From Prorocentrum cordatum (taxonomy: Eukaryota), in assembly GCA_963575745.1 (NCBI GenBank), contig CAUYUJ010000208.1:62001-116855 (forward strand): a DNA stretch of 54,855 nt, in the 5' to 3' direction. Shown here piece by piece: positions 1-39,805 of the stretch. Every line of letters begins with the position of its first letter. The stretch's first letter is position 1. Position numbers and translations under genes: made by a program. The notes below the pieces were generated by a model. The model searched no databases, was not told where the DNA came from, and saw nothing but the letters and a program-made list of their open reading frames with translations.

Positions 1-2845
1 GCATCCGTTCACGAAGCCCCGGTCCTTGTCGATGTTGCGTGTCAGCCGCAAGCGCATGCCCTTCCGGAAGATCATGCGGCCCCCGCCGGCGCCAGGGTCG
101 CCGGGCACGCCGTGGGCGCCCAGCTCCTCCTCGTCGATGCCGAACTCCATCCGGAGGCGAAGGAGATTCAGGGCGCGCGCCGCGGCGTTCGTGACGGTCA
201 GGAACGTGAAGTGCTTGCCCGCGCGGTCCTTCTCCATGGCCATCGCGTGCTGGACGGCCTGGGCCCCGCCCCGGCGCAGGCGGCGGCCCTGGAAGAAGTG
301 CGCAAGCATGCCCCGCGTCGGCTGGCGCTCCCGCGCGTAGGACAAGAAGTCGGGCATCGGCGCGTCAGTGCATCGGGCGAAGGGGTGCTGCTGCAGTTCC
401 ACGTGCCGCATATTCCCCTGCCGGGCCTGCGCGAGGAGCGAGCTCTGCATGACCGAGGCGCCGTGGATGGGCTGCAGCTGGTGGAAGTCCCCGACGAAGA
501 CCACGAAGGGCCCGGGGCTCAGCTCGCGCAGCGCCGTCCGCATCTCCCGCCACACGCGGTCCTCCGGCTGCGAGCATTCGTCGAACACCAGGAGGTCGAA
601 GTGCCGCAGCCTGCCGGGTGGGACGTATTGCGCGTCGGCCTTCCGCGTGATCTTGAAGCTGCTGTGGATCGTCCCCGCAACAATGTCAAGGCCGGGCGGG
701 AGCTGCTGCCGGTACACGCTCACCAGCGCGCCGATGGGGCAAGCGATCAGGACCCGGCAGCCCGTCGACGCGGCGTCGATGGCGCACTGCAGCACCACGG
801 ACGTCTTGCCGGTCCCAGGCCCGCCGGTGACCAGCAGGAAGCGCGACATCGGCGCTACGTTGGCGTCCGCCACCTCGACGCCAGCCCTCACCGCGTCGAG
901 GACCTGGTTCTGCTCGGGGGACCAGATGAGCTTCTCCACCCGGCGCTCCTTCCTGAGGTCCCACGCCGCCACGGCTCTCCGGCGCGCGTCCACGTCCTCC
1001 ACGGCGTCGATCCGGCGGATCAGGAGCCGACAGGCGCGCAGCCTCGCCACGAACGTGCGGATGCGAGCGGTCTTGAGGCCGCGCAGCACCATGTCCTTGA
1101 CCACTTCCTGCAGCAACCCCGGGTTTGCCGCGTCGTCGTTGTCGAAGTTGTCCTGCGCCGCCACCAGGGCCGCCTTGAGGCGCCGCGTGCCGGCCGCTGC
1201 GTCGTCCGCGGGCCACAGGGCTTTCGCAGGCAGAACGGGCACGCCCTCGCTCATGGCAGCCCGTAGCGCGTCCGAGTCGGCCGCGCGCGGGAGGAACATC
1301 GCGCACCAGGCGCCGACGAAGTTGTCCAGGAGTTCGAACGGGAATCGCACGGCCAGCGCCTGCATAGACTTGTCGGCGCCCCTGCCCCGGCGCGGCTGCG
1401 ACGGCGCCGCGCGCCCATTGTGAATCTTCCGCTCCCTGGCCCACTGGATGTATGAGAGCTCCTGGCTGGGCCGCGCGTCGCCGATGGCCAGGGCCACTTC
1501 CTCGCGGAGGTCGCGCTCCAAGTACGCCCTGTGCAACAGGTCGCCGTCGTTTACGCGCGACGCGTCTGGTGCCGTCCTGTCGCGCGGGAGCGGCGCGTAC
1601 AGGTGCCTCCCGCGGTAGCTGGCAAGCATGAGTGGCTTCGTGGCGAACTCCACCGTCATCTCAGGCTCCAGAGGGGCCTTCTTGCAGAGCAAGCGATAGG
1701 TCTGCCGCCAGGCGCCGCAGTGCTCCGCCTCGCTCTCGCGCGATTGGAATTGCAGGGCGTCCGAGCCCTTCATCTCGTAGCTTGTGACATAGTTCAAGAA
1801 GTTGTGGTGGCCATTGTTGCACTGCGCGTCCGCGGATCCAGTGAAGAGTTTCTCCAGGAAGCGCAGCGGGCGAGGGTCCTCGGGCACAATGCCAGGGTCC
1901 GTGCCCCCCGGGGGGCGCCCGGCCATGCTGGGAGCGTACCCGAAGATGTTCGCCTTTGTATCGAACTCGACCCACGCCAGCACGTGCACGCGCAGCGTGC
2001 CCCGCCCCTGGAACTCGATGCGGAGAACGTATTGGAAGACGCGCTCGAAGCCGCACTCGGACGGGCTCGCGAGAACGACCTTTTCAAACAGCGTCGTGAT
2101 GGTGTGGCACAAGTGCAGCGTCAGGGCGGGCTGCAGCTCAGTCAAGTCAGAGGCCTCGCGCACGCGCGCAAACATACCGTCGTGTAGCAAAGCCTTCCAC
2201 TCGGCTGGGGCAATCGTCATGAAGACGTTCGGGAGCCCACGCTTCCACTCGGACTCCACGTCGCGGGCAGCTCCCGGCCCTTGAAACGAGGCCACGTACT
2301 CCGGGTGCTCCGCCATCTGCCTGCAGACGTCCTCCAACTTCTCCCGCTCCCACTGCCAGAAGCCCGAGAAGTTCTGCATCTCCCTGGCCGGCTCGTCCGG
2401 GGCAATGCGCTGCTGCTTGGCAATCGCGACCAGGGAGGACAGCTGCCGCGCCAGCGCGATATCGTAGAGCAGCGCGAACAGAGGGAAGTCCGTCTGGTAG
2501 GCCACGCACCGGCTGCACAGCTTCCGCATGAAGCTCGCCTTGATGCTCGGCTTCCCGTTCTCTGCGGCGAGGTTCAGGGCGCGCAGGCGCGGGCGCAGAT
2601 CGGAATCGCCAAAGGCGGACGTCGGGTACAGGACGGGCCGAGCCGCCGCCTCGACCCCGGGCATCCGGAGGAGGAGCTCCGCGGTGTAGATCCAGCGCGC
2701 CCCCTCGCCCGCTTCCTGCAGGGCTGCGAGCTTCTGCAGGTGCATCTCGTAGTAGCGCCGGTAGGCGTCCGAGTGCTCCATGAGCCGCGCGAAGGCTGCC
2801 CGCGCTCGCGGGGTGGGCAGGCCCGCCTGGACATCGCGCGCGCGC
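1..2845 (-). CDS. Helitron-like Rep (HUH Y2) + PIF1-type SF1B helicase, main intronless reading frame; runs off the window start
   Basis: Manual translation of the minus frame (codons at 3n+1..3n+3) shows no stop. Rep motif 1 PNVFMTIAPAEW (~2197-2232), motif 2 RIEFQGRGTLRVHVLAW (~1972-2022) and motif 3 YVTSYEMK (1768-1791). Helicase motifs GGPGTGKT (802-825), TIHSSF, LLVFDEC (~574-594), GDFHQL (~475-492) and GMRLRLTRNIDKDRGFVNG (4-60). It is missing from the ORF track because it has no stop inside the window. Confidence 0.92.
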
Positions 2846-3849
2846 GCCACCGGGCCCGGACCACGCTGGTCTTCTTCTTGCAGGCCGTCGGCGCGCGGCC
2901 GCCCCGCACAGAGGTGTAGTCGCACTGCAAGTTAATGATAGGCAGCGACGCGGCCTCCTCCTCCGTCAGCTCAAAAACGCATCGCTGGGCCGCTCCCTCG
3001 TCGCCCGCCGCCGCGCGGAACGTCCCGGCTCTCGCGTCGTAGACGGGCCAGTCGCTCGCGGCCGGCGTCACGTAGTACTTCGCGTTGCCGGAGCGAGGCT
3101 GCGCCGCGGCGGCCCTGCAGCTGGCGCACGCGCCGCAGTGCACCACGCGGCCGGACTCGCTGGCGCCCGGGGGCGTCGACGGGCTTGCCCCAGTGCCAAA
3201 CGCCGCTGCACTGCGTGCACGCGACCCATTCCGCCCCGGCCACCGCCGCTGCCCACTCACCGGCGTCCACGCACGCAGACCGAGGTGCCAGGCGCCGGGG
3301 GGCGGCGCGCTCCATCGCCGACGGCGGCAGGTCGCGCCCGCCGGGGCAGGCCGCGGCGGCGGTCTCGACAGAGAGCCCGTGGCCGCCCACGGCCCAGTCG
3401 CGCTGCGGCGGCCGCAACGAGGGCAGAACGTCCAGGACCCGAGTGCCATCCAGCGCCGGCCTCGGCGAATGCCGTCGGGCGCCTCAGCATCCTCCGCGGG
3501 GCCTCCGCTCAGCTCCTCCACCGGCCTCGGCGGGCGTCCAGCGCCCACAGCGAAGCAGCGGTTCGATTCGGTCAGCCAAGTCGAGGCGGCGTCGGCGCGG
3601 CGCGCCCGACGCGGTGCCCGCGATCGCCATCGGCGCGGCCCCCTCGGCATTGCACTGGAGGCGCAACTCCCGCGCCCGGCGCGCGCTCAAGCCGAAGTCC
3701 CTCCTCAGATCGCTCGGGCCAGCTCCGTCCCGTACCGCTTCGGCGACGCGTGCGTGGTCAGCAGCGCTGAGCGTGGCCCTGGTCGCGCCGGCTCGCACCG
3801 CTTGGGCGACGCGCGCGGTCAGTCGGTCTGGGGTCAGTGGCGCGGCGCA
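2846..3849 (-). pseudogene. Frameshifted N-terminal part of the Rep-helicase gene (third HTH-like repeat plus CxxC zinc-finger-like motifs)
   Basis: Protein-like segments switch between frames: ATLSAADHARVAEAVRDGAGPSDLRRDFGLSARRARELR, WTFCPRCGR, WVACTQCSGVWH, HCGACASC, YYVTPAASDWPVYD...LPIINLQCDY. The last shift lies in a (CG)n run at ~2836-2847. Confidence 0.7.
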
Positions 3850-4240
3850 CTGTGGTGAGCGAACAGCCGAGGCACGAATGCTGTCTCGCGGGCACAGCAG
3901 CGAGGACGCGATGCGCGTGCGTCCGCGCGCCCCGCAGCGAGCGCGTGAGGTTGCGAGGGGCGCTTCGCCGCGAGGCGACGACACGCGAAACGCGAGAAAG
4001 ATGGAGCCGCGGTTTTGTCGGATGCGCCGCGGCTAGGTCGCCGCGGAGGGAGCGCACGCGAGCGTTCACCGCGGCACCGGCCAGCCTTGCCGCGCACAGG
4101 AACAGTCATGCGTGGCGGCTAGGCCGCCGCGGAGGGAGCGCGCGCGACCCGTCCGCGGCGCCGACCAGCCTTGCCGCTCGCAGGTTCCATAATTGTTTGC
4201 GGCAGGCGGGGCGCCCATCTTCCTGTGGGCGCGTTTCGCC
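3850..4240 (+). repeat. Split direct repeat A1 (391 bp)
   Basis: Appears identical to 13933-14323 (offset 10083). Confidence 0.95.
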
Positions 4241-5808
4241 TGCCGTTTCGGGCCCTGGCCCCGCGGCGTTTCGCTCTGGCCCCGTGTCCCTGGCCCTTTC
4301 TCTCTCGCCCTTCTGTCCTTCGGTGTCCTCCCGCCCCCTCTCGCGCCTGGCCCTTTCCCCTCTGCTGCGCTCCGCTCTCGCCCCGGCCCGCCTCTTGCCT
4401 CTCGCCCCGCGGCCCGCCGCCGGCCCTGTTCTCGGCCCCTCGGCCTCCCGTTCTGTCCCGCCGTCGGTCCCTTCGCTCGGTCTCTCGGTCCTGCCGTCCT
4501 CCCGCGCGCCGGTCTCCGCGCCGTCCGCCCCGCCGCGCGTCGGCGGGTCGCTCGCCCTCCGCTTCGCCCGCCGCGCGCGCAGGTTCCTCCTCCTTCTCCC
4601 GCGCGCGCGCAGGACAACCGCGGCCCCGCCGAGGCGGGCGGGCCGCGTTGGCTCAGCGCGCGCAAGACCAATCGCGGCCCCGCCGAGGCGGGCGGGCCGC
4701 GCTCTCGCGCGCGTGCAGATTGATTTCGACCCGCCGAGGTGGGCGGGCCGCGCGATGCGCCCAGGCCGAAGGGCGCCCCGTTCTGGCCCCGTCGCCGCGT
4801 CGTCGTGTCGTCGTTGGCGCGTCGCGCCGCCGCCGCCGCCGCTGCTGCCGCTGCGCCGTCGCGTCCGTGTCGCGTCGGCTCGTCGTGCTCTGTCGCGTCG
4901 TCGTCGGGGCGTCGTGCTGCCGCTCGCCGCTGCCGCCGGTGTGTCGCTGCGGCCGTCGCCGTCGTGCCCGCCGCCGCCGCTGCGGTGGCCGCCGCCGCCG
5001 CCGCCGCTTCGTGTCCCGCTTCCGCTTTGGCCCCGGCGGGGCCTGCCCCGGCTCCGGTGGGGCCCGCTCCGGCCCTGGTGGCGTCCCGGTCCCTCCCTGG
5101 GCGCGGTGCTCCGCTCCTTCGTCGCCTCTGCTGGACGCGGCTCGTTTCGCGGCGGGCGCGCTGGGTCCCGGGCCGGCGCCCCGCCCGCTCCTCGTCGTTT
5201 TGCTTGGCTCGAAAGTTCTTTTCTGCCCATGGTCGGGCATCTGCGCAAGTGTGCGCACGGGGCTCGTGGACTCGCGGCAGGAGATCTGGGTTGTTGTGAC
5301 ACCCAGACTACCTGCTGCAAGTCCGCGAGTACCCACCCCGGCGCCTCGCGCCCGCAACTGGCGGGCAGGCGGACCGCCGGGGACATCCGTACCTGCGTTC
5401 GGCTCGTGTCGGTCGGCCCGGATCGGCCCTGGTGCCAGGCCGGCCCGTCCGGACTCCTGCAGAGACGGCGACTCGCGTTGCCCGTGCAGTCCCGGTCGAG
5501 CGCGCCAGACGCAGCGCGCGCGCGACCAGGTCGATGTTAAAGTCGCGGCGCCAGCGAGCCCGTTTCCCGCAGTGGCAGATCTCGTGGAGGTTGGGCTCGC
5601 AGCGCGCCCCAGCAGCGGCCGCGGCGGTGCGCGGTAGGACATGGAAAAGGATTTAGACGGCTTGCGCCAACCAGGCAAGGGAGATGTGGAGTGTGATCGG
5701 GCCCATCGGGGATCACGCTGACTCCACTAGCGTCGGCCCACTGAGGCCAGGACACGGCACGACCAGGCAAGGTGGCGATGCCCGGATCATCATCTCCGGG
5801 GGGCGCTC

Positions 5809-6410
5809 GGCCCACTGGGGCCCCGCCCGCACCGGCACGTTCGATTGAACGTGACCGGTGGGTCCACTGGGACCCCTTCAGGGAGCAGCGTGCACGCCCA
5901 TGTTGGCTTTGCCCGTACCGGCGCGCTCACTGGACGCGACCGGTGGTCCACTGGGACCCCTCTCCCTCCGCTCAAGGGCTGCAGGCAGGCCCACTGGGGC
6001 CCTGCCTGCACCGGCGCGATCGATTGGACGTGTCCGGTGGGTCCACTGGGACCCCATCAGGGAGAAGCGAGCAAGCCCACGTTGGCTTGCCCGTACCGGC
6101 GCGCTCACTGGACGCGACCGGTGGTCCACTGGGACCCCTCTCCCTCCGCTCAAGGGCTGCACGCAGGCCCACTGGGGCCCTGCCTGCACCGGCACGATCG
6201 TTGGACGTGACCGGTAGGTCCACTGGGACCCCTTCAGGGAGCAGCGAGCAAGCCCATGTTGGCTTTGCCCGTACCGGCGCGCTCACTGGACGCGACCGGT
6301 GGTCCACTGGGACCCCTCTCCCCCCCGCTCAAGGGCTGCAGGCAGGCCCACTGGGGCCCTGCCTACACCGGCACGATCGTTGGACGTGACCGGTTGGTCC
6401 ACTGGGACCC
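5809..6410 (+). repeat. Tandem array (~180 bp period, ~3.3 copies) with about 10 CCACTGGG cores in the retrotransposon leader
   Basis: Units start at ~5810, 5990, 6168 and 6346. Most cores read GGTCCACTGGGACC (5-bp stem, 4-nt loop). Confidence 0.9.
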
Positions 6411-6946
6411 GCTAGCCCTATGTTCTCCCAGGACGGCCTTTTGGTGGCCCCGCTCCTGGGTGACAGTGACGCGCCAAGGCCTGGCGCCCCGTTCGGGGCA
6501 GCGGACACCCGGCGCGAGCTGCGGGAGCAAGCGGCACCGACAGCTGAGAACGACGGACGGCCGGCGGCTCCGGCGGACGGTCCGGGCGGGGCGGTCCGGC
6601 TCGCTTACGAGGCTCCGCCATCCCGCCCGCCCCCCCCGCTCTCCGGGGCCCGCGTGTCGGGATTCGTGGCGCATGCGTGATCTCGCGCGCAGGCGGACTC
6701 GGGCCCCGTTACCGTTCCCGTCGCCGGTCGCACGTCGGTTTCTCCGAGGCTTGCATTCGATCGTGCTTCGTGGCGGCTTCGCCGTGTCGGCCTCGGCCTC
6801 GTCTTTCCCGAGGCTCTCGCCCACCCGCCGACCCGCCAGTCCCGGTACCTCGTGTTCCGCGAACGTGCGACAGAGCGAGCCGCGCCGCGCGGACAGTGCA
6901 GCGGACTCCAGGTTTCCCTTCGTTCGCCGCGCAAACAATTGCCGCC

Positions 6947-8465
6947 ATGGAGGCGGCCGCTGCCTTGCGTTTCTTTCTCAAGAAGCATGCGATGGCGACA
7001 GGGGCTCCAGACCCGGACACATGGCTGAATGACATGGTCGCGATTCTCGACCGAGCGGAGGCACGTGTCCGCCGCCCGCGCGCGCGCTCCCGCTCCCGCC
7101 CGCGCGTCCGTGCGCGCGATCCGGCCGTCCCGCGCGGCCACCCGCGCGAGCGTCCCGTGCAACAGGTGTACACCCCGCAGGCACTCGTGTACGTCAACAC
7201 AAAGAAGATTGAGATCTCGCCTGGAAAGGCTCACGCCCTCGACCAGGCTATACAGGCAAGCGCGCGCCCAGAACCGCCGCGACGGTCGCCCTGCGACCGC
7301 CGCCGTTCAGGCGGCGAAGAAGGAGTTCGCACCTGCTGGGACCACCGCGCCTGCCGGGCCAGCGGCACCCGCAGCGGACCCGCTGGCGGAGCTCACCCGC
7401 ATCCTCACCAAGGATGACGCCCCGACGGTTCACGTCGACTTCCAGGCGCAGCTGAACGCCATCACCCTGGCCAACTTGCCCACCGCGGCGTGGCCCAGGC
7501 GCGCCCCCCCCCCTCCCAGCCTGTTTCGCCGGTCCGCGGCCGCCCGTCCGGCCGCGTCGCGTCAGGACCGTGCGCGTCGATTCCCTCGCATCCGAGGTCG
7601 ACCGCCTACAGAAGAAGAAAGGGCTTGCCGCCCCTTTTGTCAACGTCGACTTGCGCCTGTGGCTTCCCACGGGCGCGTCCGCCGTCGGCCGCCCACATGA
7701 CGACGATGCCACCCAGGCGGGCGCGGGCGGCGGGGCCAAGCCTCGCCTGATGAATTGGACCGAGTGGCACCTCGCCTTCGACCAGTACCTCGCTGTCCCG
7801 CCCGCCGACCGTACTCGCGGACCCTCCTCGGCGGCGCAGGTACGCTCTGGCCGCTGCCGCAACGAAGCAGCTCGACTTCGCCGCGGCACTCGCACACAAG
7901 CAGATCTGCCTCCTGGCATCTTGCCGCGCGCGCCCGCGCGCCCTCCGGCCAGCGGATTCCCCGCTCGCTTCGCAGGTAGCGGCCCACGCCCAGCTCAAGG
8001 GCCGCAAAGCCCACCTGGGCGTGTTCTACGACCAGGTCGCCCGCCGCTCCTGGGCCGAGAAGGCCGCCGCTGGCGTCACAGGTTTCCAGGCCCGCCACCC
8101 CGCTCCGCCGCGCGCGCCCGCGCCCCGCCCCCCCGCCGCGGACCTCGGCATCGCAGGTGAGTCAGGCGGCCCTCGCCCTCGACGAGGTGCTGCTCCGCCA
8201 GGCGGAGCGGGAATACGATTTTGACGAGAAGAGCCTCGGCAGCGCCCCCGCCGCCACGAAGCAGGAGGGAGCCGGTCCGGCCCGAGGCCCGGCGACGCCC
8301 AAGCGCAGCCAGGCCCACCGTGCGGGCCATGGCCTGACCGCCCAGCAGAGTCAGCAGAGTCAGCAGGGCAAGCGCAGGGCCGACACCGGGGCCAAGACCG
8401 GCTCCTGGAAGAGCTGGAACAACAAGAGCAACGGCGGGGGCGGCGGCAAATGGCAGCGCCGCTGA
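6947..8465 (+). CDS. Gag-like ORF1 of the YR retrotransposon, 7 exons (~369 aa spliced)
   Basis: GCCATGG start. Proposed introns 7061-7165, 7256-7310, 7499-7565, 7785-7839, 7916-7975 and 8090-8156 give one continuous frame with WTEWHLAFDQYALAAAATKQ...HKQICLLVAAHAQ...LGVFYDQVARRSW and a basic C-terminal tail. The Gag call rests on position and on resemblance to YR-element ORF1 motifs. Confidence 0.75.
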
Positions 8466-8698
8466 TCAGCGACAGCGCGCGCCTGACGGGCACAGCCGTC
8501 AGCACGGCGCGCGGAATTTTGGGCTTGCTGCTAATTAGAGCGTCCGACGCGGTAAAGGGTCCGAGGCGCACCAGGAATGCGCGGGCCCCGCCCTCCCTCC
8601 TGCGCCCTCCACGGCGCCCCCCTCGCCCTCCACGGCGCGCCCCTCGCCTTGGCGCCCCCCTCGCCCTCCGCGGCGCGTGCGTTCAGCTTGCTTTCGCC

Positions 8699-11338
8699 AT
8701 GAAGCGCTTTCGCGAGCACGCGAGCCCGGACGAGCCGGCTCCCAAACGGTCTGTGTCTGATGCTCGCAAGTTGTCTTTCGCCGAAGCGGCCGCCCTCGAA
8801 GGCGATGCCGGCTTCGAGCCGGGCTGCAAGCTTTCGCAGGACACTTTGGCGGCGCTTGAATGGATGGCATCGAGGCCACCCGAAGAGGCGCCCAGGTGCG
8901 CGCGCAAGGCGACCGCGCGCCACGACCGAGCGCAGGTAAGGGAGGAGCGTGAAGGGGCTGTTCTGCGGGTCCTCTCCATGGCACATCAGTTCAGGACGGC
9001 CGGATTCGTCGAAATCTGGGGTCGCGGCGCGGACCCGGGCGTCGCCAACGTAGCATCCGGCGTCAACGGCCCGCTCTTCGAACGCCTGGTCGCCGATGTG
9101 GACTTCCACGACCCGAAATGCGTTGACTTCTTCCGTGAGGTGCAACGCGCGAGGGGCGGCTCTGCTTCTCGCGCCCGACGGAGCGCGGCCGGCGAAGGGT
9201 GCACCGCTGATTGGGACACTCGAAAAATCCGGCACGGGGACGGAGATGGCGCATAAGCCGCTGATATCAGCGGAAGAGATCCTTCGAGGCCGGCGCGCGC
9301 GCGCGTCGGCAGGGGCCCGGCTTCTCCTCCCTGGCCCCCCGCCCCGCCGCGCGCCAGCCAATGCACGGGACAGAAAAGCATTGTTCAAAAGGACACGGCC
9401 AAGCCCGTGCGACGAAGCGCTGCACGAGGGCGCACTCGCCGACGCGAGCGCGGGGCGATTGACGACGCCCCGGCGACTGAGCCCCGACGACGTGCCCCCG
9501 GATGCCGCGGTAATCCCCCGCTTCGGCGTGGAGCAGGGGACGCGGCCGGACGGCACCGCTAAGGTACCCCGACGGCCGCCCGCGCCGCTCATTCGCGGAC
9601 CGCCGCCCGCGCGCCAGGTGCGCGCCGTAGACGACTGCAGCGCGGCCCACCTCAACAAGGGTACGGAGCCGCAGGAACGGATGAAGCATGACACTGTCGA
9701 CGCGCTGTTTGACGCGTGTCGGAAATTGGCGCGACGCGTTTCTCGGGCCCCGACGCCGCGTGCGCTCTGCCCTGTTCAGGCACCCCTGGGGCCCTTGGAG
9801 CTCTTCAAGGCCGATATTGATTCCGCCTTCCGCAGAATCCCCTTGCGCCCGGAGCACCGACGCTTCGCTTGGGTCATCTATTGCTTCGCCGGCGTCACCT
9901 GGGGAGCCCAGCACGTTGCCCTCCCGTTCGGAGCAGGCCCGCGCGGGCCATCCCGCCCCACCCGCCGCCCCGCCGCGCGTCGCGGCGCAGTCAGCAGCGT
10001 ACACAACTGGGAGAGAATCGGCGCGGCCCTAGTGGCCATCTGCAGGCGCCTCTTGCGGATCCCAATCCTGAGGTACGTCGACGATCTGTTCGGCGTCGAG
10101 CGCTCCGGGGAGGCCCGTCTCGCTCTGTCCCCTCCCCCCCTTCCGTCGCACCCGGTCGACCCTCTCCGCGCTCGCGCAAAGGCCCAGCACGCCCTCTCGT
10201 GCGTGGTCCGGGTGATCAGGTGCATCCTGGGCCCTACGTCGGTGGCCGATAAGAAAACTGAGTCGGGCCCGTCGCTCGTGATTCTCGGACTAGCCATCTC
10301 GGTGCACCGCGCGCGACGCGTTCGCGAATGGGGGGCTAGGGCACTGTGCGTGCGGTGTCGCAGACCTCACGCAAAGGGCTGATTGCGCGCCCGTCCAAGG
10401 ACAAGGTCGACAAATGGACGAACCGAATCAGGACGGCGCTTGACGACGGTTCGATGACCGCAGGCGCGCGCGTGATCGCGCGCCGCGCGCGCCGGGGGCG
10501 ACACCTTTCTTTGCACAGGTGGGGCCGCCAAGCTCGCGGGCGCGTTGTCGTGGGCGGCGTCGTGGCAATTCCGCAAACTAGGCCGTGCGATGCTGCGGCC
10601 CTTGTTCGCCCACGCACACTCGGGGCGTCCGTTTCTACCGCGCCCCGCCCTGCGCAGCCTGGCGTGGTGGTTGGAAGTGTTGCAGAGAAGCGTTGCAGAG
10701 ACAAGGGAATGGGAGCCCGCGGACACCCGCCCGCCGGTCCTTGCCTTCGCTGACGCCCGGGGCGAGCCCCCACGAGCGGCCGCCGTCCTCTGGATCGACG
10801 GACGTTGGGAATACACAGACCAGATGCCGCCGGCCTGGCTAACGAGGCCCCGATCGCGCGCCGGCGACCGATCGATGCAATTCGGCCTGCGCGCAGGCAA
10901 TTCCAGCAGCGGAGCGACGATCAGATCGCCGGACTCGAGATGCTCGCTTCGGCCTTGGCGATCTCCACCTGGCAGAAGGAGCTCCGGGGCCGCAAGGTTC
11001 GCCTCTTTAGCGACAACACGATCGCCGAATGGTCGTTCCGAAAGGGATCAGCGAAGTGCTGCGACCACGGGGCCATCGTCCACCACTTCTGGTCGGTGAT
11101 CGGGCTGCTCCAGATCAACCTCCGGATCGACCGTGTCCCTTCCGGCGGGCCCGCGCGTTATCTCTGTCAGGTCGGGTCCCACTCCCGCGGCGCGCCAGTT
11201 GATAACATTTCTGACCTGCCCAGTCGGGAGGATTATGATCTCATGACACGCATTGGGGCCACCTGGAGGCGCCCGTGGCTGCGGCCAGAATTCTGGGACC
11301 TCCAGCTGCCATGCCAGCTCGCGGCCCGTCCCGTCTGA
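8699..11338 (+). CDS. Reverse transcriptase-RNase H, 12 exons (~671 aa spliced)
   Basis: RT motifs KADIDSAF, LPFGA and RYVDD; RNase H motifs AFADARG, IAGLE, FSDN and DNISDLPSR. Introns 8888-8935, 9140-9197, 9289-9357, 9564-9617, 9729-9779, 9937-9990, 10113-10181, 10302-10363, 10464-10518, 10847-10896 and 11145-11198 each match an insertion relative to the intronless homologue at 26211-27948/38024-39503. Confidence 0.92.
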
Positions 11339-11427
11339 GCGCTCTCGCGGCCTCGCCAGTGCTCTCCTTCCCCCCGCTCCTGCTCTCCCGCCCACCCGTC
11401 ACCCCGCGCTCGCTCGCGCGTAGCGTC

Positions 11428-11910
11428 ATGCGGCAAGTCTGCCCCCGCCCCGAGGGCATTTTCAACGTATCCATGGCGCGCGATCGAACACCGCCGCGGA
11501 GGTGCTGTTACGTTCGGCTGATCCAGCGAGCGCACACCGCAAGTCATCTCGCGAAGGTCGCGGCGCATTCCCTTTTCAGGAGCGAGATGCGGCAGCGCGA
11601 CACGGACGCGGCGGCCTCGTGGCTGCGGGGCCGCGGGATCCGCTCGTGGTTCCAGCTCGGGCGGCTTCCCGCGGATTCAGTGCCGTCCCTGGGCTTGGCT
11701 AGGGACGCGCGCGCGACGATCCTCCGGGCCATCCAGCTGGCCATCGAATGCCGACTGGACGAAGCACTCTGCACCTTCGGCACGGAACTCGAACCGGAGT
11801 CCAGCTGCTCAAGCAGCGAATCTGATACCATCGACTATCGCACGACGATGGTGGGCGCGCCGCAGGGCGCGGACGTCGATGACGACCCAATCGAAACGAC
11901 GTCGCCTTAG
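11428..11910 (+). CDS. Additional small ORF between RT-RH and YR, with a SAM/HhH-like helical motif and an acidic tail (possible in-frame intron 11476-11556)
   Basis: AAASWLRGRGIRSWFQLGRLPADSVPSLGLARDARATILRAIQLA followed by an acidic, Ser-rich tail. The ATG is preceded by a TAG acceptor-like site. Confidence 0.55.
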   Translation: MRQVCPRPEGIFNVSMARDRTPPRRCCYVRLIQRAHTASHLAKVAAHSLFRSEMRQRDTDAAASWLRGRGIRSWFQLGRLPADSVPSLGLARDARATILRAIQLAIECRLDEALCTFGTELEPESSCSSSESDTIDYRTTMVGAPQGADVDDDPIETTSP

Positions 11911-12105
11911 CCGCGCCGTCACCGGCCAGCGCCGGTCGCTCCCGCTCGACCCCGCGCAAGGCTCGCATCAGAGAAAGAGACGCGAGCGCCGCCCGGGAAG
12001 GCGCGTCAGTAACGCGGCACGAACGCTCTCACACGCGAAGGGGGCTATCGAGAGGCGCGCAGGGCGCGGGGCGACCTCTCTCAACGCGCCCCTCGGCGCG
12101 CCAGA

Positions 12106-13677
12106 ATGAAGCTCGCCGACCAGATCGCCGTTGCGACCCCGTGGGCGTCACCCACGGTCGTTGAGGAAGTCGCCAAGTTTCTGGTTTCTTGCGATGTGTT
12201 CGCGATCTCATCTGTGCGGGCGGTTGGCGCACCGGAAAACTGGAGCGGCTACGTGAATCTGTCGCCCGACGCGCAGCGCGCGATCGCGCTCTTCGCGCGA
12301 GCAAAGCCGCCGCCGGGCCCGCCACCTGCGGCGGCGTTCGTGAGTGACGAGGTGCCTGCGGCGCCCGTGTGCGCTCAGCCGTGTGTCTCCTCCGCCGCTG
12401 GCTCCTCCTCTTCCTCCTCGTCCTCCTCCTCCTCCTCGTCCTCCTCGCCCCCCCCGCGGGCGGGTGGTAGGAGTCCAGCCGCGCAGGCACCCGCACGCCC
12501 GCAACAGGAGGGCGTACTCTCGCAGCGGCTGCAATTAGCGCGGGCGACGGCCGCGCTGAAAGCGTCGCCCCTGGGCTCGAGAAGAGGAGGCCCGCGCGCC
12601 GCAATTCGACGCCTGGCCGTTGCGCCGAGCGACCCCGAATTCAGGAAGCGCGCCTTATTCGGGGCCCGGTGCGCCGCCGTCCTCAACGGTGCCCCGCGCT
12701 CCATCGGCACGTGGACAGCCGGCCTGAGGTGCTGGTTCCGTTTCGCCAAATCGCAGCTCGGAAAAGGGGACAGCCCCCTCCCGCCAACTGCGGACGAGCT
12801 ATGTCTTTGGGCTTTGTGCTTCTCGAACCCCGGCACTTTTGCCAATTACAAAGCCCAGGTCGACAAGGCCTGCACGCTGCTGGGCCTCGACCGCTCAGCG
12901 TTCAGCAGCCCCGCCGTTTCGCGCGCAAAGGCCGCGATCAAGCACCGTGCGCCCCAGCCTGACCCGCGACCTCCCCCTGTCACGCGGAAGGCGTTAGTCG
13001 CGATGTTGCCGCACGTGCCTGACCCTCAGGTGCGAGCGCTGTTCGTAGTCGCCTTCGCACTGGCCTTGAGGCTTCCCTCGGAGGCGCTGTTGATCAGCAT
13101 AGGCGACCCAGCACGGGCGGCCAACTTCCGGTTCACGCAGGAGGAACTGGACCGCCCAGTGCCGACCATCGTGCTTTTCAACACGAGCGAGGCGGTCGTA
13201 CTCCACCTCTCGAGGCGAAAGCATAAGCCCAGGCCTAGCGAAGTCAGGCGCTCGTGCTGGTGCAGCATCTGCACCGCGACCTGCCCAGTGCACGCCCCGC
13301 GCGCCCTACTGGGCGACCTCGCGCCGGGTGCGTCTCCTTTTGCCCACCTGGCAAAGCCGACCAGAGCCGGGCGCGTGCTCCCCGTGCCAGCAATTACCCG
13401 CAACCTGCGCAGGTCGGCGCAAGCGGCGGGCCTCCCCAATGCCGCCCGCATCACCTCGAAGTGCCTGCGGCGCGGCCACACGGAGACTCTCCGCCAAAGC
13501 GGGGGGAGCCTCGCCACCATCTTGAGAGCCGGCAACTGGAGGTCCGGCGCATTTAAGGCCTACCTGGACCAGCCTGCCCTGGAAGACGCGGCGACGGGCG
13601 AGGGCATGGCCCTCTCCGCCAGCGCGGGCCCTGAGGCCGCGGGCCATGACCCCGCAGGCGCTGCATCTCAGCCGTAA
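12106..13677 (+). CDS. Tyrosine recombinase of the retrotransposon (523 aa, no obvious intron)
   Basis: ALRLPSE (Arg I), SRRK, CPVH, SKCLRRG (HxxR position carries K), AGNW and FKAY (catalytic Tyr at 13561-13563). Confidence 0.92.
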   Translation: MKLADQIAVATPWASPTVVEEVAKFLVSCDVFAISSVRAVGAPENWSGYVNLSPDAQRAIALFARAKPPPGPPPAAAFVSDEVPAAPVCAQPCVSSAAGSSSSSSSSSSSSSSSPPPRAGGRSPAAQAPARPQQEGVLSQRLQLARATAALKASPLGSRRGGPRAAIRRLAVAPSDPEFRKRALFGARCAAVLNGAPRSIGTWTAGLRCWFRFAKSQLGKGDSPLPPTADELCLWALCFSNPGTFANYKAQVDKACTLLGLDRSAFSSPAVSRAKAAIKHRAPQPDPRPPPVTRKALVAMLPHVPDPQVRALFVVAFALALRLPSEALLISIGDPARAANFRFTQEELDRPVPTIVLFNTSEAVVLHLSRRKHKPRPSEVRRSCWCSICTATCPVHAPRALLGDLAPGASPFAHLAKPTRAGRVLPVPAITRNLRRSAQAAGLPNAARITSKCLRRGHTETLRQSGGSLATILRAGNWRSGAFKAYLDQPALEDAATGEGMALSASAGPEAAGHDPAGAASQP

Positions 13678-13781
13678 TGCGCGCTCGTCGCGCCCTTCAT
13701 CCCGCACGCGGTAAGAAACGTCGCGACGTTGGCAGTGGGGGCGCGCGCACACGACGGCTGACGCCGGCCTGCTGTTGCATT

Positions 13782-13937
13782 GGGTTGTAGCAGCCAGGCG
13801 TCGCCGTCGAGGCGCGCGCCGCCACCGCCTTGTGCTCGGCGGGGGCGGCGCCGCCCGACGCGCCGCCGCACCCATCGCAGGATGGTTGCTGCGACCGCGT
13901 GGCGGACGCCGCAGAGCGCCGCGCCCGCAGCGCTGTG
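13782..13937 (+). repeat. Split direct repeat B1 (156 bp)
   Basis: GGGTTGTAGCAGCC...GCAGCGCTGTG, repeated at 14340-14495 (offset 558). Confidence 0.95.
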
Positions 13938-14323
13938 GTGAGCGAACAGCCGAGGCACGAATGCTGTCTCGCGGGCACAGCAGCGAGGACGCGATGCGCG
14001 TGCGTCCGCGCGCCCCGCAGCGAGCGCGTGAGGTTGCGAGGGGCGCTTCGCCGCGAGGCGACGACACGCGAAACGCGAGAAAGATGGAGCCGCGGTTTTG
14101 TCGGATGCGCCGCGGCTAGGTCGCCGCGGAGGGAGCGCACGCGAGCGTTCACCGCGGCACCGGCCAGCCTTGCCGCGCACAGGAACAGTCATGCGTGGCG
14201 GCTAGGCCGCCGCGGAGGGAGCGCGCGCGACCCGTCCGCGGCGCCGACCAGCCTTGCCGCTCGCAGGTTCCATAATTGTTTGCGGCAGGCGGGGCGCCCA
14301 TCTTCCTGTGGGCGCGTTTCGCC
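13933..14323 (+). repeat. Split direct repeat A2 (391 bp)
   Basis: Copy of 3850-4240; overlaps B1 by the 5 nt CTGTG. Confidence 0.95.
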
Positions 14324-14339
14324 CCACCCACATCCGCCC

Positions 14340-14495
14340 GGGTTGTAGCAGCCAGGCGTCGCCGTCGAGGCGCGCGCCGCCACCGCCTTGTGCTCGGCGG
14401 GGGCGGCGCCGCCCGACGCGCCGCCGCACCCATCGCAGGATGGTTGCTGCGACCGCGTGGCGGACGCCGCAGAGCGCCGCGCCCGCAGCGCTGTG
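14340..14495 (+). repeat. Split direct repeat B2 (156 bp), right end of the element
   Basis: Copy of B1, separated from A2 by a 16-nt spacer. Confidence 0.95.
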
Positions 14496-15009
14496 CTCCG
14501 TACAAGGCGCGCAAAGCCTTCGCCCGGCTTTTGCTCAAGCCGTAATCCTTCGCGAGGTCGCCCGTCCGCGTGCCGCCCCGCACTGCCTCCGCGATCCGCG
14601 CGTGCTCCGCGGCTCCCAGCGTCGCTCGGCTCCGCGACCGTCCTCGCGCAGCTGCTGCCGCCGCCTGCTTGCCACGCGCGCGGCGCGCGGCCCGCGGTGG
14701 CGGCGCAGCGGCCCTTGGGGCCCGATTCGGCGTCAGTGGCGCCGCGCCCTGGCAGCCGCACTGGCTGCGCAACGCCCGCCCGCGTCGCTTGCTCACCCCG
14801 ACGTCCCTGATGAGGTCGCCCACTGTCGCGCCGCCCCGCACCGCCTCCGCGATGCGCGCGTGCTCCGCGGGCCCGAGAGTCACTCGGCGCGGGGCCTGCG
14901 CAGGACCAGCCGCCGCGACCCGCCGACGCCGGCGAAGACCGCCGGCTGCGCCAGAGGACGCGGGCGCCTCGATGGCCGCCGCTGGGCGCTTGCGAACCAG
15001 GCGAGCCAT
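14491..15009 (-). CDS. Extreme N-terminus of the Rep-helicase gene (MARLVRKRP..., two HTH-like repeats), separated from the rest by the retrotransposon insertion
   Basis: ATG at 15009-15007. Repeats TLGPAEHARIAEAVRGGATVGDLIRDVGVSKRRGRALR and TLGAAEHARIAEAVRGGTRTGDLAKDYGLSKSRAKALR. It joins in frame to 3849 when the insertion is removed (...LYGAQ|CAAPLTPDR, compared with ...CGCQGAAPLTPNR after repeat 1). Confidence 0.85.
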
Positions 15010-15062
15010 GTCGGCGCGCCCGCGAGGCGGGTCCAGTGGGTAAGGTTCGCGTGAGCAATCCT

Positions 15063-15084
15063 CTACAGCCCCAATGGCTACGGA
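15063..15084 (-). other. Dinoflagellate spliced-leader-like sequence (relic SL)
   Basis: The minus strand reads TCCGTAGCCATTGGGGCTGTAG versus DinoSL DCCGTAGCCATTTTGGCTCAAG (18/22, ungapped). It is in sense orientation, 53 nt upstream of the Rep-helicase ATG. Confidence 0.8.
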
Positions 15085-15275
15085 GAGAAGAGAGCCAGGG
15101 GGGCGGTGCTCTGTCCCACCAAGGACGCGCTTGGGAGCCTCAGCCCGTTGGGGGGCCCAAGGCGGTGCTAGGCTGACCCAGGAGGCTACCAAGACGGTGC
15201 TCGGGGAGGGGGGGCTCGTTGGGGCGCGCTGGCCTCTCATGGCCCGCCTCCACAGAGACGGGCCGCGCTGCGTTA

Positions 15276-15715
15276 TGCATCGCCAAGGCGTCGACCAGGC
15301 GCTGCGGGAAGATGCCCGTTTTGTCCTCGTGCACGCGTCGCATCGCCTTTGCATCGACCTGCGCGTGCCGCGTCGCAGTTCCAACGATGCAAACGGGCCC
15401 CCCCCCCCCTCAGGGATGCAACGGGCCACCCCGTGCGCTTCGCGTCTGGCTGGTCTATGCATCGCCAACGCATCGGCAAGGTGCCGCGCGATGCCGCCCG
15501 TTTTGTCGCTCCGCGCGCGCGCGTCGCATCGCCTTTGCATCGGCCTTCGCGCGCCGCGTCGCGGTGCGACGCAAACAAACTTGGGGGCTCTGCCCCCAAG
15601 CCAAGAACCGTCTCGCGCGCCCCGTGTCAAGCTGGGGTTTGCATCGCCAAGGCATCGGTGCTGCGCTTCGCGTACGCGCATCGCATCGCCCTTGCATCGG
15701 CCATCGCGCTCCTCG
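15276..15715. repeat. Degenerate ~181-bp tandem repeats upstream of the Rep-helicase gene
   Basis: TGCATCGCCAAGGC...CGCATCGCCTTTGCATCG units at ~15276, 15457 and 15639, with further GCATCGCCGATG motifs at ~16235-16360. Confidence 0.75.
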
Positions 15716-17074
15716 GCGCGGTGTCGAGGAAGCCCATGCGGACCTCTCGCCTCGAAGCAACGAACTATTCCGCGCGTGCGACGCTCCGCAATTCCATGAG
15801 AATTAACCGCCGCTGGGCGGTGTCCCTGCGACGCACAGGGACTCGCGTCTATTTACGTTATTATTCAAATCGCGTCTACAATCTGCTGCCAAGCAAAGAA
15901 ACGCGGCCCTGTCGGCGTGCTGCGCCCGCGCGCGCGCCATCCACATCCTGTGCGCCTCTCAAATCGCCTGCGGCGGCGAAAGAAAATCGCGACCCGCCCG
16001 TCGCGGAAGCGCGCGGCAGAAGGAGCCAGCGTGCCCGCGCGATCGCACCCAAATCTTTACACGTACAAGCGACGCGCAAACAGCGCGCGAAAACGGTCGC
16101 GGCCCCTCAACGTGACGCGCCGTCCCTCTCTGGCAGCGCGCTTGCCGCAGGGGGCATTCGGTGGGTAAGGGCGTCGCGTTTGGCAAAGACCGTCGCCCAC
16201 TCGCGCGAAGCTGGGAGACCGCGGAACCGATTTGCGCATCGCCGATGTCACCGCGCACGCGCGTCCGTTGAAAGGGGGCCCGATGCCGAGGCTGCATCGC
16301 CGATGCGTCCCGGCCGCGAAGATCCATATTGCTAACATGCGACGCGCATCGCCGATGCCATCGTGCGTCGTGTCGGATGACGGAGCGCAGCGCTGCAGAA
16401 GCATTTGAGAAGTGAGTCGTACACAGAATTGAAAATCCTCATAATTGCAGTTTTACTTAGTTTTTTGTTCTTTTTTTTTCTTGGTCTCCTTTGGGCGCTC
16501 TTTGGGTTCGTGGGCCCGCGGCTCATCCTAAAGCGCGCCTGGTTTGTGGGCCAGAGGCGTCTTCGAAGCGTGGTGGTCTCTCGGGATGCATATGGGACGT
16601 TTACTTGGGTGTCTGCTTGTACGTCAGGGCTCTTCAGGATTCATCTGCCTTCCTCAGGATGTATCAGTTTTCGGTTTTTAGGGACTGACCCAGGTGTTCT
16701 TAGTTTTCCTTTCAACTTCTTCAGGATTCCAGGATGTCTAAATATTCAATCGGATTCTGCATGTTTTCCTCATCCTCGTCAAGATAAATTTTCAGGTTGC
16801 CTTTGGGTTCCTCGGGATCCCACAGGGATATGCAGGACTTTCAAGGTTCAGTCGCACGTGCTCAGGACGTCCAGTTTCTTTGGGATATCGTTGGGTTGTT
16901 GAAACTATTGGGGGTTAGTCGGGGTGTTCCTGGTGCGCCGAGGATATAATTTGGTTTTCTTCGGCGTGGGGGGGCCATGCTATTCAGAATAGAACTCACG
17001 ATGCGTTTAAATCTTCGGGCAACTTTGACCATAAAAAGAAAAATAGCCATGCGTAGAGGATGCAGGATCTGATA

Positions 17075-18850
17075 CATTACGCTACTCTAATACATTACAA
17101 CACGCGAACACAATATACTAATACACTGCACACCTACCCCGTACTAATACACGACGCGACTACATTAATCCACGCTATCACGCTGTGCGCGTGACATTTA
17201 CGTCGGAACCATTCATACGCGACGTTCAACGCTCGATCTTTATCGCGCGACACTTATCCACGAATCCACTTCATTAGCACACCGCGCAAATGCATCGCTC
17301 GAACACACTACTCCACACTAGCACACTCTACGCGGCACGTAACGCGGGACTTTTCGTACGCGATACTCAGCGCGCAACGCTTGGCGCGCGGCACATGTTA
17401 CGAGACATTGTCAATTGTTTTAAACAGCGAACTGCATAGCACTTAATGCGCGATAATACGCGGCATTTAATGCGCGACGCTTTCATTCATGCGCGACACT
17501 GAAGCACAACGCGTTCTACATTACAGCCCGTGCGCTACACATAATACACGATAGTATATATATAGGACATTTCAACCACGGCAATGGGTAGTGTATTACG
17601 ACTGCGCATGACTAAGACTGAGCACGCGATAATTAGCGCACGGCGCTCGGCCCATTACACATATCGGCATCGCGCGACATCCCGCGCGCGACAATTACAC
17701 AGTATACGCGACACTTTGCACACGACGTTTTGCGCGCGCCACTCAAGACACGACACCTAGGACACTACGCTTAATACGCGACACTAAAAGGCACGACGCG
17801 TAAGGCACAACAATTTAAACGCGATGGGCAACCCACTACAGCTAACGCACTACATTTTCCACGCGAGACCTGGTACACTACGGCTCTTACGCTACACTAA
17901 ATACGCTACAATTGCTACAATGCATCAGGCGTGCGGCACTGAAGATGAGGCGCGAATGTTTTTGCATTACAGATCGCACACGAGCTTATATTAAGTTGAA
18001 GGCACGACATAAGCTGCACTAAATGTAATACGACAGATACGACGCTAAATCTGCCACTACAGTACGCGCCAAACGAATACACTACATTACAACACGATGC
18101 GAATACACTACGCTAACACGCTAATATAGTACACAATACAACTGCACGGCGCCAATGCACTACACGAACCTATTGCGTAATCAACCTGCGCTACTACACG
18201 ACGCGCCGGCCCTACGTTATTACGGCAGCTAATGGTACACCGCTACGCGACACTTACTTAATGCGCGACACTGAGCACGCGATGTTTAGTACGCGACACT
18301 TTACGACGCGCTGCCTAGTCCACGACGCTGGTGCCGTCTTGGGGCAATCTGGGGCCTCTCGCGGGGCTCTCTTTGGCCACCCCCAGGCCTTCTTGAGGCA
18401 TTGGCAAGCTGACGGGGGCGAAACGGCGGGAAGGCAACAAACATTGAGTGCCTTTATGGTTGCGATGGGTTATGGCTTCTCGGAGGCTCACATTTGAAAG
18501 CTTCGCGGCTCGAAAAATGACTTCTTGGGCTCTCTGAAGGCCCCCCTGGAACCATGCAACAACACGAATCATAATTGTTGATGTCGTGGCATGAATTGGC
18601 GTAGCACGTCCGTGTCGCGTATTCGCGTAGCGTTGTCGTGCAGTGTCTTCGTAGAGCGCATGAGTGAAGGGTAGTATTGTAGTGTATGTGTGTAGTGCAT
18701 TAGCGCAGGGTGTTCGCGTAGTATCAGGTGTTAGTGTATTCGTGTAATACGTTGTTATAATGTTTTGGTGTAGTGCGTTCGCGTGGTGTACTAAGTCGCG
18801 CATGCGTGTTTTATTGAGAATTCGGTGTGGCTGCAGCGCACTCCCATGCA
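17075..18850. repeat. Degenerate strand-skewed low-complexity satellite (ACACGA/ACTAC-like at 17075-18310; complementary GT-rich version at ~18590-18850)
   Basis: There are no long ORFs, and short acacg/actac motifs recur. Confidence 0.6.
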
Positions 18851-19997
18851 TGTCAGTGAATATATTGTTGGGGTTTGGTTATGCTGGGTTCTTTTGGGCG
18901 TGGGCCCCTCTGGAACCCCCAAAGCCCCTCATGAACCCCCTGGGTTTCGCGTGGCCACCCCCCAGGATCCACAGGGACCCTCTGTGATTCCCCAGGTTTC
19001 CTCATGGCTTCCCAGAGAACGGTTACTTACGGGCCCCTACTGTCCAGTCTGTTTTCTGATGCCCTCTACGTCCCCATACGGTCCCCAGTTGCTCCCTGCT
19101 GCCCCTCGCGGACCCCTACGGTCCCCTCTGTCTTATGCGGCCCCGTCGGTCCCCTACGGCCTCCCGCTGTCCCCTGCGGTCCACTGCGGGCCCCTACGGA
19201 CCCCGACGGTTCCTTGCGGTCCCCTGCGGCCCCCTGCGGTCCCCTACGGTGCCCTATTGTCGCTTTGGTCGTCTGCGGTCCCCTACGGCCCCCTACGGTC
19301 CCCATCTGTCCCTTACTGTTCCCCGCGACCATCGTCATCGTCGCCGCCGCCGTCGCCAGCCCGTCTCTTTATACGTATGCCCTCGCCCTCATGCTTCTCG
19401 CCCCCTCACCCCCCCCGTTCAGCCCCCCCCCCCCCGCGACCTCGACTCCGCCGCTCCCTTCACCCCTCCGCCTGGTGTGCAAGTATGCATCCGCTTTCCC
19501 GCATCTTGCCCCCTCGCCGTGCCATCCTCAACCTTGCCCTCGACAGACCAGGTTGCTCTGCCGTGTGTGTACAATTACTATCTTGCCCCCGCGTCCCCTG
19601 CCCTGCCACATCCTGGTGAATTGATACGCCTTGCCCTCGTCATTCCGTTCACAGCAAGAGGGGGTGCGCATATGTGCAGCGCGCGGTTGTGCCTGTACGG
19701 TTGGGCCCAGCGTCGGCGAACATTCATACACGATCTGCGCCCGTTGCATGTACTTGCATTGTGCATTGCATTGTGAGACTGACATTGCATGGCGGTGCAT
19801 TCATGTGATGTGGTATGTGTTGCGTAGGCTTGCATTGCCCACGCAATCAGTGCATGTCCTGCGTTGCCTGAAGTGCATTGCGATGCGCGTCAGTGCAGGG
19901 ATGCATCATGATCCGCATTGCTTGTTTGGCTCAGCAGCTAAACCTGCACGTCTTCGCCGCGCACGGGGCTGTCCGCATACCGAACACAGGACAGACG

Positions 19998-25784: not shown

Positions 25785-26210
25785 TGAGTGAACAATCGCC
25801 AGATATGTAGGTAGGACGTTAATGCTTGCAGCCAGTCCGTCTCATGGTGGGCAGAGGTTCTGGGGTTGCTCGCGCGCGAGGCCGCACGCACTTGTTGTGA
25901 TGAGTACGGCGCATAGCTCAGAACCGCACCGCTGACCCCGAACACCCCATCCAGAACCGATGCTCGCGAGATAGTCTTTGGCCACTCCTTGCTGGGGCCA
26001 CTTTGGGCGCTGCCACAGCGTGCCCCCCCAGGTAGGTGGAGTGAGGAGGAACATCACGTACAGAAAGGGTAGAAGGTGTGTGATGCAAGCGTTGGCCCAG
26101 AGGCCACTTTGGCCCAGAGGACTGGCAATTTAACCATCGCGTGCATTTTGCTCGCGACGGGATCTCGTGCCGCCAAGGGAGTGGAGCCTCGCTGCGCGAT
26201 GTGGCGCGTG

Positions 26211-37994: not shown

Positions 37995-38023
37995 TATATA
38001 TGTGTATACTTTCTCCCGTTCTC

Positions 38024-39503: not shown

Positions 39504-39805
39504 GGGTCGGAATAACGAAGTTATTGCTTGGCACAAATCCGCCCGCGCTGTGAACGAGGGCCAGTCTGCGACCGCTCGCATTGGGATCTCGTGCCGCCAA
39601 GGGAGTGGAGCCTCGCTGCGCGATGTGGCGCGTGCTGGTGGCACGCGCGGAGCGGCGCGGCCGCGCCGCCTCGGCGAGGGCCTCGGTGCGCGATTTTCGC
39701 GCGGTGGCCTCGCTGCGCGAGCGGCAAGGCGCCGGGGCTCTCAGCGCGGCGTTGGAGTGGTTGTCGAGAAGGGCGCATCGAGCTGCGCGCGGTTGCCAGC
39801 TTGGT

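Follow-up and report, generated by a model that had tools for sequence, protein, structure and literature searches.

A probable decayed spliced-leader relic in front of a split Helitron-type Rep-helicase gene from Prorocentrum cordatum or a very close relative

Slamovits and Keeling reportedly explained in 2008 how leaders come to be encoded in dinoflagellate genomes, namely through the recycling of mRNAs via complementary DNA (cDNA). Here, we analysed a stretch of 54,855 nucleotides (nt) from Prorocentrum cordatum or a very close relative (the window, meaning this whole stretch), in which a sequence resembling the dinoflagellate spliced leader (DinoSL) stands in front of a Helitron-type Rep-helicase gene. 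Relic leaders are an accepted tag of mRNA-recycled dinoflagellate genes, counted mainly for host genes (PMC5585692, PMC7245778), and are reported from more than 20% of Symbiodinium genes (PMC5585692). The known source of a genomic DinoSL before a gene is trans-spliced mRNA that has been re-integrated as cDNA, and under this recycling model a gene keeps its outermost leader in complete form in the genome, only relics found in mRNAs being truncated (PMC7245778, PMC9651163). Song et al. scored as a relic any exact leader piece of at least 9 nt lying on the same strand within 500 bp upstream of an open reading frame (ORF), placed the best-kept relics at -50 to -100, and proposed a promoter role for relic leaders at these positions (PMC5585692). 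Leaders have also been described before genes of foreign origin, with a DinoSL within 2 kb of 13 of 59 virus-derived genes in Symbiodiniaceae (Irwin et al. 2022, PMC9651163), and that source cites Levin et al. 2017 for a DinoSL in a Symbiodinium RNA virus, described as 'molecular mimicry'. A search for the words Helitron and DinoSL together found no work linking the two, and the P. cordatum genome paper makes no mention of Helitrons.

We read the sequence in the window as a decayed DinoSL relic in the 5' leader of the Rep-helicase gene, and put the probability of this reading at roughly 0.65. As in the described relic-DinoSL genes, a partly decayed leader lies in sense orientation less than 100 nt upstream of the start, spliceosomal introns are absent, and the exact leader piece exceeds the 9 nt used to score relics (PMC5585692, PMC7245778). 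Unlike in those genes, the relic here precedes the Rep-helicase of a Helitron-like DNA transposon rather than a host gene, and the likeness between copies extends upstream of the leader, placing the relic inside a DNA-copied unit. The virus-derived genes offer a parallel in that a selfish or foreign element has a host leader upstream in its DNA, for which both retroposition and mimicry have been proposed (PMC9651163), but those genes are viral and host-integrated, whereas the gene described here is a transposon's own replication gene. With Helitrons and Helentrons, the gene shares a probable Rep domain with the tyrosine pair Y-x-T-x-Y, an HUH motif in its paralogues, and a following SF1B helicase with the Walker A sequence GGPGTGKT; it differs from them in a triple helix-turn-helix (HTH)-like repeat at the N terminus that corresponds to no named domain, and in that the window copy appears to be inactive. 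Three relatives (P0005, P0018, and P0022) carry an OTU domain (PF02338), which we take to be a Helentron trait.

The DinoSL-like motif, TCCGTAGCCATTGGGGCTGTAG, occupies 15063..15084 on the minus strand (read from 15084 to 15063), and is the only match of at least 17/22 in the window. Compared with the DinoSL 22-mer as printed in PMC5585692, DCCGTAGCCATTTTGGCTCAAG, it is identical at 18 of 22 positions without gaps, with a perfect match over positions 1-12 and mismatches at positions 13, 14, 19, and 20, so that re-scoring returned exactly the match, including its perfect 5' part, that an earlier note on this DNA had reported. The ATG lies at 15009..15007 on the same strand, and the spacing between motif and ATG (15062..15010) is exactly the 53 nt that the note had given, with the strand left unstated. 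The motif is in sense orientation at -75 to -54 relative to the ATG, which falls within the -50 to -100 zone of Song et al. and thus fits the position of a relic, and its exact leader piece measures 12 nt (11 within the 21-mer used by these authors). The same note had called the retention of the full 5' end of the leader notable; it is not, given that the recycling model expects the outermost genomic leader to be complete.

Chance matching was modelled with 2000 first-order Markov simulations of the window, both strands being scored. Matches of at least 18/22 arose in 0.2% of runs (mean count, 0.002 per window), compared to 3.3% of runs for 17/22 and 27% for 16/22; the actual window holds one match at 18/22, none at 17/22, and one other at 16/22. 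This last match, at 5682..5661 on the minus strand, was rejected as a relic, being at chance level (0.32 expected) and lying inside, and antisense to, a nested insertion described below. The 21-mer with at most three mismatches has no match in the window because the motif itself carries four. A genome-wide rate of chance matches had been suggested as a check; in its place, the window and 70 related metagenome loci (257,366 nt) served as background. In these loci, sequences matching at 17/22 or better occur at five places in four loci, all on the gene strand and none on the other, against 0.067 expected per strand.

Judged from protein matches, the ATG at 15009 is the real start of a Rep-helicase family gene that is split in the window. 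The minus-strand ORF that contains it, 14149..15681, also reads through the motif in this DNA of 70% G+C. A helicase directly downstream of the ATG was considered and rejected, since the ATG frame enters repeat sequence after codon 173, stops at 14149, and has no Pfam match. Among 20 long ORFs of the window tested against Pfam, one has Helitron features, namely 1..2925 on the minus strand (975 codons, running off the window). This ORF matches Helitron_like_N at E 7.6e-6 (26.7 bits, just below the cut-off of 28.9), AAA_30 at E 6.8e-12 (45.9 bits; cut-off, 27), and AAA_19 at E 4.3e-10; it has the Walker A sequence and a DExx box, DECSQ, as in PIF1-type SF1B helicases, as well as the paired tyrosines of the Rep domain. 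The helicase that was expected behind the ATG, yet is missing from the contiguous DNA, is accounted for when the gene is read as split.

Two P. cordatum proteins carry this reading. The first, P0002 (1619 residues, 'unnamed protein product, partial [Prorocentrum cordatum]'), is 96% identical to ORF 1..2925, begins 17 codons before the window Met, and comprises, in order, two HTH-like repeats, a third, a Cys-rich region, Rep, and helicase. The second, P0023 (1763 residues), begins at the same Met, that is, at ATG 15009. When P0002 was mapped on the window by ungapped tblastn, residues 1-190 fell at 15060..14491 (93% identity), residues 191-265 at 3849..3625, and the remainder, to residue 1457 of 1619, extended down to position 1, where the gene runs off the window, all on the minus strand. 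The gene start (14491..15009, minus strand; the first 173 codons, with two HTH-like modules) and the rest of the gene (1..3849, minus strand; the third HTH-like repeat, Cys-rich region, Rep, and PIF1-like helicase) are separated by a gap at 3850-14490. Both proteins are colinear with the window gene from the ATG into the helicase and read straight across this gap, whose length of 10,641 nt is a multiple of three, and the frame is continuous across it. The DinoSL-like sequence accordingly heads a Helitron-type Rep-helicase gene, as had been claimed, and a precomputed PF14214 assignment exists for P0002 and 11 further protein matches. The claim also included a helicase frame without introns, about 2.8 kb long; this is the open frame 1..2925, which lies 12 kb from the motif and is joined to it only across the nested insertion. 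Setting aside that insertion and the frame changes, about 4.4 kb of coding sequence in the window can be followed colinearly along P0002 and P0023, and no spliceosomal intron interrupts it; no parent copy with introns came to light. Because transposase genes are often intronless, however, intronlessness is weak evidence for a relic.

The HTH-like repeats at the N terminus are Arg/Ala-rich and lie at about 14888-14767, 14630-14509, and 3780-3640 on the minus strand, the first two sharing 75% DNA identity. The module matches HTH_Tnp_1 of Pfam weakly (E 0.0093; 16.6 bits, below the cut-off of 24.1), and comparable N-terminal modules were seen by eye in the distant relatives P0004 and P0005. In P0023, the linker between the first two HTH-like repeats (residues 64-118; window 14764-14600) is read in another frame than in the window and in P0002; the N-terminal region would thus seem to be damaged or loosely constrained in the P0023 copy too.

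Between the motif and the start codon lies a leader of 53 nt (15010..15062, minus strand). The first 17 residues of P0002 are the translation of 15060..15010, so that the leader is common to P0002 up to 3 nt from the motif, and the P0002 model, which is partial, starts at codon 15060, 3 nt past the motif and just after AG dinucleotides. The possibility that a further, truncated relic directly follows the motif was rejected, the best gapped alignment of the 15-nt relic core with the 53-nt leader not being significant (compared with 5000 window segments, P 0.19 for the leader and 0.06 for the 20 nt at its start). Immediately upstream of the motif, at 15085..15108 on the minus strand, is a pyrimidine-rich tract (20/24), a density of at least 20/24 being reached at 1.4% of minus-strand window positions. 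Together with the TCCGTAG of the motif, this tract resembles a splice acceptor, and such a function is putative.

According to the favoured reading, a relic in the leader, the Rep-helicase mRNA would have been trans-spliced like any host mRNA and copied into cDNA by the reverse transcriptase of a retroelement, and the cDNA, with its leader, would have returned to the genome, whether by inserting as a processed copy or by recombining with a copy already resident there. The leader would then have decayed to 18/22, and the region, including sequence upstream of the leader, would have been multiplied by DNA-level copying, for which one further copy provides evidence. The window copy would have died later, through a young Ngaro-type insertion, four frame changes, and the loss of a His from the HUH motif. 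In intact copies, the pyrimidine tract and the AGs of the relic may still serve as a trans-splice acceptor. The cDNA step, and the rejoining of a processed copy to the multiplying unit, are what we infer rather than observe. The relic would be old, because its decay of 18% far exceeds the 1.5-7% between P. cordatum copies. Taken together, the quality of the match, its sense position near a true ATG, and the restriction of similar relics in related loci to the sense strand make a relic of an mRNA/cDNA stage, one of the possibilities that the earlier note had raised, the best reading of the motif.

If so, a relic before the replication gene of a Helitron would indicate that the messages of transposons undergo trans-splicing just as those of the host do, and retroelement machinery would recycle the genes of DNA transposons as well, blurring the line between transposon classes in dinoflagellate genomes. 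The gain is modest, consisting of a single decayed relic before a dead copy; the kind of relic is already known, and it is the type of gene that is unusual.

The surroundings of the motif are shared with a further copy. A contig of 687 nt from run X1 covers 14711-15397 at 98.5% identity, with 10 substitutions, of which none falls in the motif, four lie downstream, and six upstream. Beyond the motif, this contig and the window remain 98% identical for 313 nt in the upstream direction, and further X1 contigs with 0-7 changes extend to 16200. Since the likeness continues past the leader, the retroposition, if real, would predate this duplication, and the motif lies inside a DNA-duplicated unit. 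Run X1 holds both exact and variant versions of 16050-16200, so that the variant contig is probably, though not certainly, a paralogue rather than a strain difference. It was rejected as the locus of P0002, since the amino-acid changes that P0002 shows in 14755-14830 are missing from it, and its own change at 15044 is absent from P0002.

More distant relatives give a different picture. Some upstream sequence is available for 23 of the 70 metagenome loci, and 21 of these have at least 200 nt (two were dropped for short flanks), the ATGs being provisional throughout. Sense matches of at least 15/22 upstream of the start occur in only one of the 23, L013, where a match of 17/22 lies 566 nt before the ATG and one of 15/22 lies 224 nt before it. 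Conservation of the motif at one position across family copies, proposed earlier as a check, is therefore seen in part: the motif is unchanged in the 98.5% identical X1 copy but absent at the same place in 21 of 21 distant relatives. Scanning for more DNA copies gave no relative among viral contigs and no match in a phage collection.

Sequences resembling the leader do occur elsewhere around the family. The two in L013 (3865-3886 and 4207-4228; ATG at 4431) depart from the consensus in the same way (TCCGCAGCCG...), and a T/C-rich tract precedes each of them, pointing either to a variant leader in the host or to the duplication of a single relic. In L059, a 19/22 sense match at 77-98 lies 47 nt before an ATG (146 onward), and a helicase-only family match (query residues 1150-1398) starts about 190 nt further on; this locus may represent a leader-tagged, 5'-shortened gene copy. 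A 20/22 sense match is found in L024 (5550-5571), 3.5 kb upstream of the Helitron-like gene, and L052 has two sense matches of 17/22 each (4875-4896 and 5850-5871) downstream of its Helitron-like gene; both loci presumably have these sequences at the head of neighbour genes in the same orientation. The piece GCATTCTGG, which L001 and L004 share upstream of their starts, was rejected, its match to the relic core (10-11/15) being too weak for a relic. Leader relics would thus recur around the family at differing places, and the motif appears to be no conserved feature of the family.

Several observations weigh against the relic reading. The bare DinoSL 11-mer with at most one mismatch is not significant alone, with one occurrence in the window against 0.83 expected. 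No 9-nt exact DinoSL piece is present within 500 nt upstream of the provisional ATG in any of the 21 distant relatives. A cDNA boundary at the 5' end of the leader is not seen in the X1 contig, the sole other DNA copy compared, and this contig may itself come from the same locus in a different strain, in which case the boundary test would be empty. Nor does the unchanged 22-mer in this copy signal constraint, as it would be expected anyway at 1.5% divergence (P about 0.7). A processed cDNA would be without Helitron termini, leaving its further multiplication unexplained, and the 3' end of the gene, where poly(A) and a target-site duplication would lie, falls outside the window.

Of the other explanations, the one that fares best overlaps with the relic reading and differs from it by claiming present function, namely that the element now keeps the SL-derived sequence, whatever its origin, as a built-in expression module, a trans-splice acceptor or core promoter of its own for the Rep-helicase mRNA. 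We consider this unlikely. The pyrimidine tract running into TCCGTAG is acceptor-like, and all four mismatches of the motif fall in its last 10 positions, which has a probability of 210/7315 = 0.03 if mismatches are evenly spread. The start of P0002 no more than 3 nt from the 3' edge of the motif, after the AGs, would fit transcript evidence starting there; this start is weak evidence, however, the basis on which the protein model was built being uncertain. Pyrimidine-rich tracts (17-20/24) precede three of six SL-like sites in the related loci, but the other three have ordinary upstream sequence (11-14/24). The likeness upstream of the motif in the X1 copy implies that the motif travels inside the copied unit, as a module would, and yet it is missing from its place in the distant relatives. 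A promoter role as proposed by Song et al. would suit the position of the motif, but the proposed core, TTT(T/G), has been lost, the sequence here being TTGGGG (PMC5585692). RNA run X20 yields a single contig of 267 nt, which covers 14193-14461 only, in the repeat region of the nested insertion and outside the Rep-helicase gene, and does not reach the motif. Runs X2 and X6 likewise leave 14928-15231 uncovered, an absence that carries no weight as evidence.

A bolder version of this idea, which we hold to be less probable still, is that dinoflagellate Helitron-like elements rebuilt the 5' end of the Rep-helicase gene from their own trans-spliced mRNA, and that they now carry the tract and the 5' half of the leader, with its AG, as a heritable acceptor cassette. 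If this were true, a DNA transposon would have passed through RNA, stayed mobile, and come to be processed as a host message by means of a host leader sequence.

Helitrons are known to capture host gene fragments, and capture at the DNA level of part of an SL RNA gene, bypassing RNA and cDNA, would account for the SL exon having kept its 5' end in full. This is very improbable. The 22-mer is followed by AGGATT and not by the GT donor of the SL RNA intron, and the sense position 53 nt before a start codon is what an mRNA-derived leader predicts. No Rfam match was found in 14400-16400 at E up to 1, although Rfam may hold no dinoflagellate SL RNA model. An SL RNA gene at the motif itself was rejected on the same lack of a GT donor and of an Rfam match, and on a Sm-like site reading ATTGGGG rather than ATTTTGG. 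Finally, the slimmest prospects attach to a chance resemblance, in which a pyrimidine-rich, acceptor-like stretch happened to precede an ORF in DNA of 70% G+C, for although the bare 11-mer and the 16/22 match are at chance level and 0.002 matches per window over 155 windows of genome amount to about 0.3 such matches somewhere, an 18/22 match would also have to fall on the sense strand less than 100 nt from a true start, the related loci show 5:0 sense over antisense, and relics are common in dinoflagellate genes, as the Symbiodinium figure attests.

The nested insertion that splits the gene occupies 3850..14495 on the plus strand (about 10.64 kb), after codon 173, with a junction that is ambiguous by 5 nt (CACAG, minus strand). 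It contains split direct repeats, all on the plus strand: A1 (3847-4240), B1 (13782-13937), A2 (13938-14323), and, after a 16-nt spacer, B2 (14340-14495). A1 agrees with the A2 copy, aligned over 394 nt (13930-14323), at 99.7% identity, and the 156 nt of B1 recur in B2 without a difference (100%). The order A1...B1 A2 B2 is what we take to be the layout of Ngaro-type tyrosine-recombinase retrotransposons, and by this layout the insertion is assigned to that type; its near-identical repeats would make it young. In run X1, the word depth over the insertion repeats is 120-230, compared to about 6 for the 5' part of the gene, and the loose ends there are the canonical junctions inside an element of high copy number. 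ORF 12106-13677 (plus strand) could not be confirmed as a tyrosine recombinase, as it has no Pfam match above noise and no PDB sequence match. Two further plus-strand ORFs of the window, 26167-27948 and 38002-40002, have weak RVT_1 matches (E 0.006 and 0.0075, below cut-off).

The window copy of the gene differs from both paralogous proteins by four frame changes, near 3624, 3372, 3180, and 2844. Its HUH motif reads LRVHV (Arg codon 1992..1990) where P0002 and P0023 have LHVHV, the first His having been lost. Because of the insertion, the frame changes, and the mutated HUH motif, the copy is judged to be dead, with the reservation that assembly errors may account for some of the frame changes.

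Upstream of the motif, at 15274-15723, are diverged tandem repeats of about 180-195 nt that are 68-72% identical. Contigs of run X1 omit or repeat one of these units (joints 15308>15504, 15554>15746, and 15776>15497), indicating that the number of units varies between copies. At 15806-15876, three runs show a depth far above that of the flanking sequence, and loose ends border this short segment on either side; it is probably a small high-copy repeat. Beyond this region, G+C drops from about 0.72 to 0.52-0.58 across 16001-22000, which may mark the edge of a G+C-rich repeat block.

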